Positions 3,001-9,000 of a DNA stretch of 62,297 nucleotides are shown piece after piece. Within the stretch, counting starts at the first letter, position 1. Each line of letters starts with the position of its first letter. The position numbers were made by a program. The stretch lies in the NCBI RefSeq assembly GCF_024298765.1, contig NZ_CP101213.1; one strand, given 5' to 3'. Source of the DNA: Escherichia coli (GTDB lineage Bacteria; Pseudomonadota; Gammaproteobacteria; Enterobacterales; Enterobacteriaceae).

Positions 3001-6000
3001 ACGCCGCGTTCTGGTCATGCCAGAAAATCCTGTGGTGAATGAAAAGCCGCAGGAAGTACAAAAATCAGCAGTTAATGAAAACAAGAAAGTACAGAAGAAA
3101 GATGCTGTAGCAGAGAAAACACGTAAAAAGCAGCCTCAGCCCTGGTATTTGAAAAAACAAATCACTTTTCCCCCAAAATATCCGAAAGAATATTTTGAAA
3201 AGTGTTTCAATAAAGTTCGTGCTGTTTTTCCTGAACTATGGACAGACGAAAAAAAGAACTTGCCCCTGAAAAGCGGGATTCTCCAGGACGTTGAGAAATA
3301 CCTGGCGGATAACCCGGATGTGGATCTGACGATTGAAGAGTGGAATTGTGCGGTTCAGGTGATGACGTTCCGGTGGCAATATCTTCAGAATTGTACTGTA
3401 CCAGGCGCAACACGTTACGACCTTTACGGGAAACCTGCTGGTACAGTAAAAAAAGCACACGCAACTTATGCGCAACTGGTTCTCGATGCCCGTAAGAAAG
3501 CCAGCGAGAAGAAACAATTAAAACGTAAGGGATAAAGCCCCGAAGGGCTTTATCATTTCAGCCTGGCTGACTGTAGAATCCAGTGATTTTTTCCGTTTTC
3601 GTCCAGGCCGTGTTCGTAAGCTGCAAGAGCCGCTTTCATTATTGCTGTTTTTGTCTGGCCTGTTCGCAGTGCTTCCCGTTCCAGAATATCTTCGTAAACG
3701 TCCCCAAGCCGGACATTGGTCACTTTAGTTGCTCCCGATTTTTTGCGGGTAGCTTCATTGATGAATCGGGCTGTGTCTGCATTGGTTTGTTCTGTTTTTT
3801 GTCCTGGTATTACCGGAGTTTTCAAGTCAAGAGCCATTATATCACCTTTCGTGTGTTACATTAGCTTTACTGTGTAAAGCTAATGATGTAAAGCGATCGT
3901 ATTACATCCATTAGGGATTGATGCCTAACTCTTGCGCCAAAAGCTCTATTTGTGCTTTAGCTGTAGAAAGGCTGGATGCGCGACGTACATCATGAACGCC
4001 AGCGCCTTCATTACAGGCCGCTTCAAAAATATCTAAATCTGAAATACGTGTACGAAGTGGCTGTATCCACACCGGGTTCTCCCGGAGTAACTTGTCGAGA
4101 TCAATCGCTGCTTTTCTGTGGCGTGGTTTTGTCGTGTTAATTCTCGTGAAAAGTACCCAGGGTTGCAGGTCTGGATTGATCTGTTGAGCTGTGCGAACTT
4201 TTTCTGTTACATGAGTCAGCGTTTCTGCTTCGAAATCTGAAGACGGCTTAACGAGAGTAAGCAGAGTGTCAGCTACAGTTAAGGCGCTGCGAAATTCCTT
4301 GCTGTCATGACCTGGACAGTCAATGATCAGCACTTCACATATTTTTTTCAGGCGCTTAATGACTTCTGATACATCGCCATACTCTTCATAAACAGGAACC
4401 GGTAATAAGCCATTCTGCTTTCTTTTTTCGTTCCAGCTAAGAATATCATTGTTTTTATCGGTCTTCAGAATGATGACCGTTCGTGAATTATTTACCAGAT
4501 AAGAAGCCAGGTTTGTTGCTGTGGTGCTTTTTCCTACACCGCCTTTATCTGATGCGACAAGTAATGCTCTCCCCATAGAAACCTCGGATATACAGTGTAA
4601 AGGTTTATTTGTCTTTACATTGTATTCATTATAGTTACGTTGTAAAGATGTTTGTGTCTTTACAATGTAATTGCTTTTGTGCTTTACATTGTGTGTATGT
4701 TACAGGGTAACTTTTCAGGATGCGATTTTGCCTGGTGTGTTGTTGCGCCCGTAGCTCGCTGACGCTCACACGCGCAGTACAGCGCCCCGCCCTGCTGCAA
4801 TGCACCAGGACGGCGTAAACTCGCTGGCGCTCGCGCTAACTGCGGCATTCTGCGGCGCAAATCAGCATTATCATGGCCTGTTGGTCTGTCCTGGCTTTGC
4901 AGGGCGAAGGGATGGCCCTGTGCATCCTGGTATGTTCGTCAGCGGCTGCGCCGCGCTTCGGGGCGATGTGGCCCCGCTGCTCCCTGGTATTTTCTTTCGC
5001 CCCTTCTATCCGCTGGCGCGGATTAAAAAATGAGCAAACCATCAAATAACTTGCTGTTTTCAGGCAATAAATCTTGATAATACATCTAAATAGATGTATT
5101 ATTGTTTCATCGAAAGGGGATTGGCTCCTTTCCTTCTTAAGTCCAAACGGACAGGAGATTTAAAATGAAAACATTGACTTTTAATAACGGCACTGTTTCT
5201 GTTGGCGATGTGTTTGTATCTTCCTGGGGATATGAGCAAACGAACGTTAATTTCTACCAGGTTATTTCTGTTCATGGCAAAAAAACAGTAACTGTTCAGG
5301 AGATTCGCGCTTCAGTTCATCGGACTCATTCAATGAGCGGATATAAGACTCCATTACTTAATGATTTCTGTGGTGAGCCATTAAAACGGCGAGTGCGTGA
5401 TTATTACAGTTCGCCAGCAATTGAAATTGAGGAATTCGAAACAGCATATAAAGGATCACCGGAAGAAAAACACGAGTTCACATCATACTACTAAGAAAAT
5501 AGTTGCAGGGGGTATCCCCTGCAACCATGTTAAAAATGTTAATAGTAGTATTTACCCAGGGGGTTTTAGTATGAATGATGGGGTAAAACTCCGTCCTTCA
5601 GGGCGTGGAGAATGCCGGGCTAATGCAGCAATGTAATGTTGCGCCCGTAGCTCGCTGACGCTCACACACGCAGTACAGCGCCGCGCTTCGGGGCGATGTG
5701 GCCCCGCTGTTCCCTGGTATTTCCTTTCGCCCCTTCTATCCGCTGACGCGGATTAAGAAACGAGCAAATCATCAAGTAAATTGCTGTTTTCAGGAAATAA
5801 ATCTTGATAATACATCTAAATAGATGTATTATTGTTTCATCGAAAGGGGATTGGCTCCTTTCCTTCTTAAGTCCAAACGGACAGGAGATTTAAAATGAAT
5901 ATCCAGGAAGCATTAAACGTTTTTGGATTATCCGGCGAATTAACTGAAAAAGATATCAAAGCAGCATACAGAAAAGCCGCTTTAAAATATCATCCAGATC

Positions 6001-9000
6001 GTAACCCGTTAGGGGCTGAACTGATGAAAGCGGTAAATGCAGCTTTTGATGTCTTGATGGCAAATATTGATAAAATAAATCAGTTCCAGAGCGCTGATGA
6101 ACATGCACGATATAATTACGGTGATGACCTGGAAAAAGTATTAAACGTTCTTTCTGGTTTATCTGGTCTGGTATTTGAAGTGATAGGTAACTGGGTATGG
6201 ATTAGTGGAGAAACTATTACACATAAGGAAACTTTAAAAGAAATCGGGTGTAAATGGGCGGCAAAGAAAAAACAATGGTTTTATCGTCCAGACGAACATA
6301 AAAGTTACTGGAATCGTGAAGAACACACGATAGAAGAAATCCGCGCAAAATACGGTACAACCGGACAGCGCAGGGCGACAGGGTGGCAACGCGTGGAAAC
6401 CAGAGCGTAACCAGAACGGGGGCGAGAAGCCCCCGATATCATACCAGCCCGTCTTTTGGGGCATCGAACCCAAAAAGACGGGAACAGCAGCCACGTAGCA
6501 AAAAGGGAAACAGATGAACTCTTTTTTTGAACAGTATCACCCTGTCTTTGAAGTTGTCTGCCGTATCCTGGGGAACGGCTGGCGCGTGAACAAACTTGAT
6601 GATTGTCCGTCTCGTATAAAACTGACGTCACCGCAGTTTAAAAATTACTCTGTGCATATTCGGATGGAAAAAGACCGATTTTCTGTTGTGGGGAGTGTGG
6701 ATAGTCGTTCCTGGAGTAGTCCGTATCATGTTTGTACGTTATCCAGGAAGCGGAATCCCGTTGATATAGCAGCCAATATCGAACGAAAAATTTTGCTAAA
6801 TGCTTCGCAGGAGGTGTTACAGGCGATTGAGTATGAGAAACGCCAGGCGGCAAAAAAGGACGAAATTCTGATCCTGAAAGGTATGTTATCGCAACTTGTC
6901 CAGCTTGAAAGCTGGTATGGGGCATTGACAGGCTTTAAAGCTGAAAATGGATTGAACGGTAAAGTCACCGAGCAGGGCGAGCGTTATGATTTGCAGATTA
7001 GGGGTTTGAGTATAGATCAACTTGTTAAAATTACAGGATATTTGAAACAGTTATGAGAAAAAACAAAGGGCGATTGACTTATTATCTTGAAGTGATTGAT
7101 AAAAAATACCATTTTGTAAAAAAAATAAGCAGTTATTCAAAGGAGTTCACTGACGGAAAAACAAAAAGAACAAAGAGAACGTTAAGTGAGCTGGTTTTTA
7201 ATGAAAGTGAGGTCGAGGCAATAGACTTTACAAAAAATGGTTTAAGACCTGTTGATAAGAATATTCTCTTAACTATGGTGAAAGAATATAAGGAGAGTGA
7301 TGCATGACTATTGAAAATACACCGGAAAACATAAAGAAATTACGAAAAAAAATTGGCCTTACCCAGACAGAGTGCGGTGAGATTTTTGGCGTAGGCTTAA
7401 GTACATGGCAGAAAAAAGAAGCTAAAACCCACAACCAGCTTAATTTATCGAAAGGTGAATTTGAGTACCTGTTATTACTTGCAGGGGAGCACCCTGAATA
7501 CGTCCTGCATAAAAAAGCTGAATCCCGCTCACCGGAGGAACCGTGAGCGAGAAGAAAAACACCACGACGCAGAAATCTAAGATATACAGTGTAAAGGTTT
7601 ATTTGTCTTTACATTGTAATTGTTCTTTGTCTTTACACAGTGTGTGTTTGTAACAGGGCGACTTTACATAATTGCGATTTTGCCTGGTGTGTTGTTGCGC
7701 CCGTAGCTCGCTGACGCTCACACGCGCAGTACAGCGCCCCGCCCTGCTGCAATGCACCAGGACGGCGTGAACTCGCTGGCGCTCGCGCTAACTGCGGCAT
7801 TCTGCGGCGCAAATCAGCATGATCATAGCCTGTTGGTCTGTTCTGGCTTTGCAGGGCGAAGGGATGGCCCTGTGCATCCTGGTATGTTCGTCAGCGGCTG
7901 CGCCGCGCTTCGGGGCGATGTGGCCCCGCTGCTCCCTGGTATTTTTTTTCGCCCCTTCTATCCGCTGGCGCGGATTAAAAAATGAGCAAACCATCAAATA
8001 ACTTGCTGTTTTCAGGCAATAAATCTTGATAATACATCTAAATAGATGTATTATTATTTCATCGAAAGGGGATTGGCTCCTTTCCTTCTTAAGTCCAAAC
8101 GGACAGGAGATTTAAAATGAAATTCACTTCAACCACGAATCATGTTTTCACATTCGAACGAGTAACGCTTTGCACGATTGTTCTTATTCATAAGGATACG
8201 GGACAACAGTATGTTGTCATATTTACGGATAACAATAAAATTCGTGACTATAAGACCGGAATTGTTTCTCAGTTTGGTGAACTTAAGCAGAGTGATATTG
8301 ATTTAATTCTTTTCTATCGGGACGAATATGAAAAATATTTTGACTCGTTAAATAATGGCGAGGAGTATTTGAGTTTTAAAGAATATATCGGATGTATAAG
8401 GGGAAAATAAATTATGAAAGGTGTGTTCAGGTTGCTGGAACAACCTGAACACGTTATCGACAATCAAAACTGAATGAGGTTTTTAAATGTCAACACGACA
8501 GATCGTACAGCTTGCTGACTCCCTTGTCAAAGGCTGGGAAACCAGAATTCCGGCAATGACGTGCACGGAGTGGGATCAATTCCGGTGGTGGTTAAACTAC
8601 CTGCAAGGGTATGAAATGTTTTAAATAACCGGGATAAATTCATATATGGGGAGAGTGTCATGCTCTCCCTTTCTTATTGGGTAGCGAGTTGTATTACATA
8701 TTTAGCTTTACGTTGTAAAGATTTTATTGTCTTTACAGTGTGGTGTGTTTTCCGGCGGTTGCGCTGCGCTTAGGGGTATGTGGCTTCGCTGCTCCCTGGT
8801 ATTTTCTTTCACCCTCCTATTTGTCCGATGACTTTTGACAACAACGCTATTTGTAACTATAATTAGTTGCATGTTGGCAAGGGATGGGATTATAGCGTAT
8901 GGGGAAAGCAGATAAGCTACTGGCAAAATTTTTAAACAGTAAAAAAACGTTTGAATGGGATGAACTCGTTGTTTTGTTTTCTTCTCTAGGATATGTCAAA

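Follow-up and report, generated by a model that had tools for sequence, protein, structure and literature searches.

A candidate early regulon sharing one palindromic operator in the putative leading region of an mcr-1 IncI2 plasmid

Gene content and transcription units of the cluster

The 62.3-kb stretch of Escherichia coli DNA analysed here at its full length (contig NZ_CP101213.1; hereafter, the window) is an IncI2 plasmid carrying mcr-1. The 5.1 kb of the window that was tested is 100% identical to many ~60-kb plasmids of E. coli and Salmonella, and the matching ~60-kb plasmids, for example CP085520.1, are typed IncI2, MOBP and MPF_T and carry mcr-1. Our subject is a cluster of seven plus-strand genes, A to G (Table 1), which an earlier reading of the sequence (the original prediction) had proposed as candidate anti-defence or establishment functions of the plasmid leading region, and which we interpret, with reserve, as an early regulon governed by the product of its own gene E.

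All seven open reading frames (ORFs) of the original prediction were recovered at the same positions, and the stop and start codons within its three-gene operon, C-D-E, do overlap, with ATGA at both the C-D and the D-E junctions. Ratios of nonsynonymous to synonymous differences (pN/pS, Nei-Gojobori) measured against diverged homologues were 0.15-0.47 for A, B, C and F. In gene G, which encodes only 45 amino acids (aa), 12-14 of 19 differences fall at third codon positions and synonymous changes exceed nonsynonymous ones; G is also the most conserved protein of the cluster, showing 87-93% identity to its relatives on IncX4, Erwinia dacicola and Pantoea plasmids, where neighbouring proteins share ~50%. 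These comparisons confirm all seven ORFs, including G, as real genes that appear to be under purifying selection.

In repeat analysis, one and the same module was found upstream of each of genes A, B and F; it consists of a GC-rich element, a promoter with its operator, a leader and a ribosome-binding site (RBS). The predicted promoter is of the sigma-70 type (TTGATA-N17-TATTAT) and identical in all three modules, starting at 5074, 5804 and 8026. The putative operator, a 26-bp palindrome (ATAATACATCTAAATAGATGTATTAT), fills the promoter spacer and overlaps both hexamers; it is present in exactly three copies in the entire plasmid, all of them inside the cluster. On the 3' side of the promoter comes a leader of 62 nt, in which hairpins are conserved, and then AGGAG and the ATG start codon. 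The claim that the repeated modules drive these genes thus stood for A, B and F, which share the promoter, the 5' untranslated region and the RBS, but failed for the three-gene operon: C-D-E have no promoter of their own and start 103 nt downstream of the J-domain gene B. Because C-D-E lack a module, and because the 103-nt gap, which contains hairpins, holds no T-tract and no convincing terminator, these genes are probably co-transcribed with B. This predicts three transcription units, namely A, B-C-D-E and F-G.

Covariation of protein E and the operator

The last gene of the longest predicted unit, E, encodes a helix-turn-helix (HTH) protein that matches TIGR03830 (positions 65-121) at 3.4e-7, the C-terminal DNA-binding domain of MqsA (PDB 3fmy) at 3e-5, and Aca3 at 0.002. 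Annotation labels E an MqsA-family antitoxin. The whole protein, however, scores 30.1 bits against an NCBIfam MqsA cut-off of 61.8, contains a single Cys and lacks the N-terminal CxxC...CxxC zinc- and toxin-binding domain of MqsA. Relatives of E are found on 4227 of the 72,556 plasmids in PLSDB (~6%).

We compared the operators of 16 related plasmid loci, belonging to IncI2, IncX1, IncX3, IncX4, IncX5, IncX6 and untyped plasmids. Every locus has the same architecture, with TTGnnn, a palindrome, TAT(T/A)AT and a conserved leader, and the core of the palindrome varies. The 16 loci fall into 9 operator-core classes, each paired with one class of predicted E recognition helix. In the window, as in the first of two D-E pairs on plasmid NZ_CP129266.1, the helix GLSTWQKKE accompanies the core ACATCTA; in IncX4, GLRTWQKKE accompanies ACGAC; and in IncX1, QLNSWQMKE accompanies CCTGCA. 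Shared helices go with shared operators across unrelated backbones. Thus, the core AGGTCA occurs with SPRTWRRKE in R721 (the IncI2 archetype) and in the second pair of NZ_CP129266.1, and with TARSWRRKE in IncX6 and a Pantoea plasmid, so that R721, IncX6 and Pantoea have R(T/S)WRRKE in common; likewise, TLSAWQAKE, which contains the shared LSAWQAKE, is found with CCATCA in IncX3, IncX5 and two other loci. Three further loci have three further helices and three further cores.

Two comparisons separate the regulatory pair from its surroundings. When the window is compared with IncX4, identity is 99.4% for B, 94% for C and 96-98% for HicAB, but only 42% for D and 68% for E; D and E have been exchanged, and every operator has changed along with them. 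On NZ_CP129266.1, the two D-E pairs (3750-4237 and 5899-6400) differ in specificity and each is accompanied by its own operator class; the plasmid also retains a vestige of gene C, from its 3' end. Evidently, a D-E pair and its operators move together as one unit in recombination. Since the operator class and the recognition helix of E covary across the 16 loci, E, possibly together with D, is very probably the cognate repressor of the three promoters and would act by binding the palindrome.

Table 1. Coordinates of the cluster and of neighbouring features in the window
Feature	Coordinates	Strand	Remarks
Seven-gene cluster A-G	5165-8624	+	
GC-rich element, copy 1	4742-5025	+	~285 nt; repeat analysis; upstream of promoter 1
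Predicted promoter 1 with putative operator	5074-5102 (operator 5077-5102)	+	Upstream of A
Gene A	5165-5494	+	109 aa; 'YagA' of R721
GC-rich element, copy 2 (partial)	5637-5803	+	Repeat analysis
Predicted promoter 2 with identical operator	5804-5832 (operator 5807-5832)	+	Upstream of B
Gene B	5895-6410	+	171 aa; J-domain protein
Gene C	6514-7056	+	180 aa
Gene D	7053-7307	+	84 aa; basic
Gene E	7304-7546	+	80 aa; XRE/MqsA-C-terminal-like HTH
TGTAAAG-N10-CTTTACA hairpin with T-rich tail	7585-7618	+	After E; terminator-like or protein-binding site
GC-rich element, copy 3	7694-7977	+	Repeat analysis
Predicted promoter 3 with identical operator	8026-8054 (operator 8029-8054)	+	Upstream of F
Gene F	8117-8410	+	97 aa
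Gene G	8487-8624	+	45 aa; four Trp
Intrinsic-terminator-like hairpin	8648-8670	+	Closes the F-G unit
repA	1-1029		Annotation
hok/sok, ProQ/FinO, ParA-like/CopG pair	up to 4576	-	Annotation
TGTAAAG-N10-CTTTACA copies	4596-4619, 4641-4664, 7590-7613, 8714-8737, 10198-10221, 10617-10640 (also 10061-10081)		
hicAB	8899-9491		Annotation
Block of minus-strand genes	9579-13490	-	Annotation
MobC and 1437-aa relaxase, then mcr-1	13858-18509	+	Annotation

The GC-rich element

The GC-rich element that opens each module is 94-97% identical to its counterpart in R721 and 84% identical to that of IncX4, and long blocks of it, such as GGCGGGGCGCTGTACTGCGCGTGTGAGCGTCAGCGAGCTACGGGCGCAA (minus strand), persist unchanged even on plasmids of Erwinia and Pantoea, where the proteins share only ~50% identity. 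The element is thus more conserved in sequence than the adjacent promoters and proteins, which implies some sequence-specific function. Folded as single-stranded DNA, copy 1 gives z = -3.97. The fold predicted for the transferred strand (T-strand) is branched, and the promoter palindrome is modelled as a separate 12-bp hairpin outside the GC-rich structure.

A relationship to the Frpo and ssi elements was considered and rejected, as blastn of the repeat module against five references from Samuel et al. (ColIb Frpo1-3 and F ssiD and ssiE) returned nothing beyond chance. Nor did the module align to the sequences that precede ssb in F, and its branched predicted fold differs from the one long hairpin of ~300 nt, with the -35 and -10 elements in the stem, that characterises Frpo. 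An Rfam search of the modules found no family. The GC-rich element may represent a new type of priming or single-strand signal.

Position relative to the origin of transfer

The minus-strand gene at 12319-13071 encodes an RP4-type TraL (NCBIfam PRK13886, 1e-53), and the next gene is weakly TraM-like; the locus therefore copies the Tra1 arrangement of RP4, in which leader and relaxase operons diverge from the origin of transfer (oriT). In RP4, the leader side enters the recipient first. Relaxase genes, for their part, generally enter last (PMC11541004). On this comparison, the minus strand of the window would be the T-strand, and would be the template from which the plus-strand cluster, directed toward oriT, is transcribed. 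The leading-region placement of the original prediction is supported to the extent of this homology, the cluster being located opposite MobC and the relaxase and beyond the TraL operon. Its claim on orientation also holds for all seven genes, which lie on the plus strand and point toward oriT, given the transfer polarity deduced here.

The ATCCTG nic core of the RP4/R64 type does not occur in the oriT gap (13490-13858); in the whole window, this hexamer was counted 57 times compared with 28 +/- 5 expected from shuffled sequences. On the minus strand, positions 13728-13779 contain an 8-bp inverted repeat, CGATTGTA...TACAATCG, followed by TATCGTGCCTG-T (in its longer form, TATCGTGCCTGTG). By resemblance, this is a possible nic region, with a polarity that would send the lower coordinates first. 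ACCCACA-type repeats run through 13540-13700.

Proteins encoded in the cluster

The J domain ascribed to protein B was borne out by Pfam (PF00226, 4e-11, residues 9-56). Its HPD motif lies within KYHPDRNP, and 46 J domains in the PDB match B. The protein lacks the G/F linker, the zinc finger and the C-terminal domains of DnaJ, and NCBIfam DnaJ models match its J domain alone, at 40 bits against a cut-off of 377. From these features, B is classified as a class-III J protein, which should stimulate host DnaK. No Pfam family matches the C-terminal domain of ~100 aa, in which the residues G-E-G-W-W-G-T are invariant. This domain contains a DUF5710-like motif, KxxLKxxGxxWxxxxKxWF, which hhalign aligned, weakly, to the DUF5710 domain of the protein encoded at 54168-54977 of the same plasmid (25 columns, E = 0.02). 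The full-length members of the B family that we found are all of ~171 aa, include the J domain and come from 30-60-kb Enterobacterales plasmids. B also matches phrog_15863 at 1e-37. Homologues spanning the full length of A and of B occur in phages; podovirus MW202738 has its J gene at the head of a set of small, early-looking genes that runs divergently from the terminase.

Genes B and C are both present or both absent in all loci that cover the relevant stretch, and a scan of genome contigs for C returned only 8 loci. The model of C (predicted local distance difference test score, pLDDT, 92.9) combines an N-terminal domain resembling type III secretion system (T3SS) chaperones and YbjN with a small C-terminal beta domain; the N-terminal domain is predicted to form the alpha-beta(5)-alpha sandwich of T3SS class-I chaperones and YbjN. 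Unlike the small acidic T3SS chaperones, C has 180 aa, an isoelectric point (pI) of 9.2 and the extra C-terminal domain. In fold comparison of the model, PsiB appeared as a distant neighbour only, and a relationship was rejected at the sequence level when hhalign was run with the alignment of C against PsiB of F (probability 0.2). A search of AFDB50 with the C model returned uncharacterised proteins only.

Protein A is modelled with high confidence as an all-beta fold with an invariant WGYEQTN motif, and belongs to a family of more than 6,000 clusters at 50% identity with no Pfam entry. Protein D always occurs together with E, to which it is translationally coupled, and searches of Pfam, NCBIfam, PHROGs, PADLOC and PDB sequences linked it to no toxin family. 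The C-terminal 35 aa of protein F match phrog_2061, a family with no assigned function. Searches with A, C, D, F and G against Pfam, NCBIfam, PHROGs and PADLOC were otherwise uninformative, and sequence and profile searches with A, C, D and F against the PDB found nothing.

The reported absence of ArdA, PsiB, SSB and KlcA signatures was reproduced in Pfam, NCBIfam, PHROGs, PADLOC and PDB sequence searches. The structure predictions and fold searches that had been suggested as a test, carried out on the A and C models, likewise gave no clear match to known anti-restriction, anti-SOS or anti-CRISPR proteins. The statement that placement was the only evidence no longer applies, as E reads as a regulator rather than an effector and B as a DnaK co-chaperone.

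Related loci

In IncX1, X3, X4, X5 and X6, and in unnamed Enterobacterales plasmids, a related cassette lies between the Rep3 initiator and taxA/taxC. All genes of the IncX cassette point at the relaxase, and only a toxin-antitoxin (TA) pair separates the cassette from oriT. B-C-D-E forms a conserved syntenic backbone module in most of the IncX types examined, with its synteny retained across ~50% protein divergence; B and C are absent from IncX1.

R721 has four operator-bearing promoters of the AGGTCAG class, which drive different small genes; B and C are missing, and a BrxA-family gene is located at 10940-11179, in the equivalent leading region. Two E-like HTH domains are encoded on a pOXA-48-like IncL plasmid (NZ_CP049954.1, 8728-9207 and 3563-3811), one of them fused to the C-terminus of a 159-aa protein; the respective genes belong to a long same-strand array that includes an annotated antirestriction gene.

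A proposed early regulon and its alternatives

We lean slightly towards the interpretation that the cluster is an E-repressed early regulon with three promoters, located in the leading region and delivering host-directed proteins. Under this model, three identical strong promoters would drive A, B-C-D-E and F-G, and E, as the product of the last gene of the longest operon, would bind the palindrome and shut the promoters once it has accumulated. A plasmid entering a new recipient would meet no E there, so that a burst of expression would be followed by silencing, that is, zygotic induction; burst and shut-off are predicted because the repressor gene ends its own operon and the operator spans a strong promoter. 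The J domain of B would load host DnaK onto a client selected by the C-terminal domain of B; C would be a protein-binding module, probably working with B; and A, D, F and G could be further effectors or co-regulators. The J protein and its chaperone-fold partner would thus make up the conserved core of the regulon, to which small genes are added as variable cargo. The binding of E, the kinetics of the burst, the DnaK client, the benefit for establishment or against defence, and transcription from single-stranded DNA are all parts of the model that we infer.

Several observations weigh against this model. The direction of transfer rests on homology to RP4 and on the rule that the relaxase enters last, not on a mapped nic site, and between oriT and the start of the cluster lie 5 kb of sequence with minus-strand leader genes. 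No sequence similarity links the modules to Frpo or ssi, and they are predicted to fold differently from Frpo, with its one long hairpin, so expression before second-strand synthesis can only be suggested. D covaries with the operator as well and could contribute to specificity. Finally, B-C-D-E is deeply conserved and keeps a fixed gene order, in contrast to typical anti-defence cargo. This conservation fits a general role in establishment or host manipulation at least as well as one in anti-defence. Of the anti-defence or establishment reading in the original prediction, then, position, orientation and regulatory logic are upheld, but nothing found speaks positively for an activity against restriction, SOS or CRISPR.

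A more specific version, which we regard as doubtful, is that B and C constitute a plasmid module that hijacks DnaK, is expressed in the first minutes after entry and drives host Hsp70, by way of the J domain, onto a specific host or plasmid target that the DUF5710-like domain of B and the chaperone-fold protein C would select. The outcome could be that a chaperone-dependent immune sensor is disarmed, that the SOS response and RecA are damped, or that the incoming nucleoprotein is remodelled. If so, B-C would represent a new class of establishment factor common to IncX and IncI2 resistance plasmids and to phages, and the interchangeable specificity classes of E would let co-resident plasmids keep their early regulons separate.

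An alternative that we consider unlikely is that the effectors are anti-defence proteins of new families, directed at restriction, CRISPR, BREX or SOS and encoded in acr/aca-like operons with E as the Aca-type regulator. The position on the leading side and the orientation with the T-strand as template suit this possibility, as do the small proteins behind strong promoters, the terminal HTH with its weak likeness to Aca3, the phage relatives of A, B and F, and the BrxA-family gene in the equivalent region of R721. The plasmid, moreover, has no known anti-defence gene: its complete annotation includes no ArdA, KlcA/ArdB, PsiB, SSB, Acr or methyltransferase-type gene of this kind. However, known anti-defence families are unmatched by sequence and have no clear counterpart by fold, the hhalign comparison of C with F PsiB was empty, and C is basic, unlike PsiB and DNA mimics. 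The pN/pS values and the B-C-D-E synteny resemble a plasmid backbone, not arms-race turnover.

Plasmid maintenance offers another explanation, in our view an improbable one: B-C would help DnaK to activate the replication initiator, D-E would be a toxin-antitoxin system like HicAB, and the leading position would be incidental. DnaK and DnaJ activate the initiators of iteron plasmids, and in IncX plasmids the J gene adjoins a Rep3 (pi-type) initiator and the origin. The antitoxin label of E and the TA pairs (HicAB, RelE/ParE and CcdAB) that flank the cassette point the same way. Against this, B-C has moved at 94-99% identity into IncI2, whose RepA is unrelated, and IncX1 has the Rep3 initiator without B-C. 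The hallmarks of a toxin-antitoxin system are missing as well, given that E scores below the MqsA cut-off without the N-terminal domain and D matches no toxin family, and the operator controls three promoters of other genes, which would be unusual for a TA autoregulator. These facts weaken the maintenance reading.

A reading of the ORFs as spurious or in decay, and of the repeats as nothing but recombination scars, is scarcely credible: although the ORFs are short, many are annotated as hypothetical, and spurious ORFs do occur in the GC-rich repeats (77 aa, at 4800-5033 and 7752-7985, whose copies differ by frame-breaking indels), the conservation data already refute this idea, with purifying selection in every tested gene, homologues in the hundreds to thousands, high-confidence structure models for A and C, and a conserved RBS and promoter.

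The early-regulon interpretation is of broader interest, as IncI2, IncX4 and IncX3 plasmids rank among the main vehicles of mcr-1 and NDM-5. None of the genes that textbooks list for establishment (ssb, psiB, ardA and klcA) is found on the window plasmid or on the IncX stretches examined, which makes the cluster the obvious place to seek functions for survival on entry. E and the 26-bp operator, with their natural swaps of specificity, are directly testable; the HPD motif of B provides a functional handle; and any function found for A or E would annotate many sequences.

Comparison with known systems

One close analogue is the set of KorC-controlled kilC and kilE operons of the IncP-1 plasmid RK2 (klcA-klcB-korC, kleA and kleC). 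That system, too, has a small HTH repressor encoded distally in an operon under its own control, and a palindromic operator that overlaps the promoter and recurs in near-identical copies before several operons of small, little-understood genes. The likeness is one of architecture and regulatory logic: the cargo of the cluster includes no KlcA/ArdB homologue, and its operator, unlike that of KorC, has at least 9 specificity classes that swap between backbones.

With acr-aca operons, the cluster shares a strong promoter, an inverted-repeat operator and a terminal small HTH protein, the similarity of E to Aca3 being weak (E = 0.002); in acr-aca operons the HTH protein is an autorepressor, and expression peaks on entry and is then shut off. 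It differs in having no Acr homologue, three promoters instead of one, and core genes that are conserved rather than shuffled. The leading regions of F and ColIb-P9 (Frpo-ssb-psiB-ardA) are comparable in the side of oriT, the gene orientation and the repeated ~300-nt structured elements ahead of early genes, but the cluster has no Frpo/ssi similarity, a branched predicted structure with the promoter outside it, and no ssb, psiB or ardA. In the case of MqsA, which also binds a palindrome, the resemblance is that of the E HTH to the C-terminal domain; E is missing the zinc-finger domain with which MqsA binds its toxin at the N-terminus, and the sequence of D does not resemble MqsR.

For B, we take Rki of phage RB43 to be a comparable phage-encoded J-domain protein, a likeness by description. 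Like such phage proteins, including phrog_15863, B combines an HPD-containing J domain with a C-terminal domain other than that of DnaJ, is borne by a mobile element and would probably redirect host DnaK early. Unlike them, B is always paired with C and placed under a plasmid repressor. The cluster also differs from the anti-defence islands of leading regions (Samuel et al. 2024, PMC11541004) in having no recognised Ard, KlcA, Acr, PsiB or methyltransferase. The supplementary table of that study includes, without comment, a DnaJ family of 5 members (PMC11541004). In the literature on IncI2 and IncX4 leading regions and on J proteins in conjugation or anti-defence, we found no functional study of the genes of the cluster.

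Other features of the region

Downstream of the cluster, a perfect-consensus promoter (TTGACA-N17-TATAAT, 8835-8863) precedes hicAB. An imperfect palindrome, GTAACTATAATTAGTTGC, probably a HicB operator, overlaps this promoter, which is preceded by only a fragment of the GC-rich element (8741-8814). Nearer to oriT and in the orientation of the cluster, an orphan HicB-like ORF (10263-10562, plus strand) lies behind a TGTAAAG hairpin; it encodes a very acidic protein of 99 aa (pI 4.05) and has no adjacent HicA.

The sequence TGTAAAG-N10-CTTTACA, with a T-rich spacer, occurs in six copies where none is expected by chance, all within 4.6-10.6 kb of the window. Two of these hairpins lie immediately 5' of the ParA-like gene, where they overlap the promoter it probably uses, and the rest are at operon ends. 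The repeats might serve the ParA/CopG pair as a centromere or an operator, act as terminators, or form hairpins in single-stranded DNA. One hairpin is spanned by a weak match to the Rfam GcvB family on the plus strand (10593-10723; 29.4 bits compared with a gathering score of 42, E = 0.003); this stretch ends at a strong terminator (10696-10716) and may correspond to a plasmid small RNA. In IncX3 and IncX5, a related CTTTACA-TGTAAAG palindrome adjoins the promoters of the J genes.

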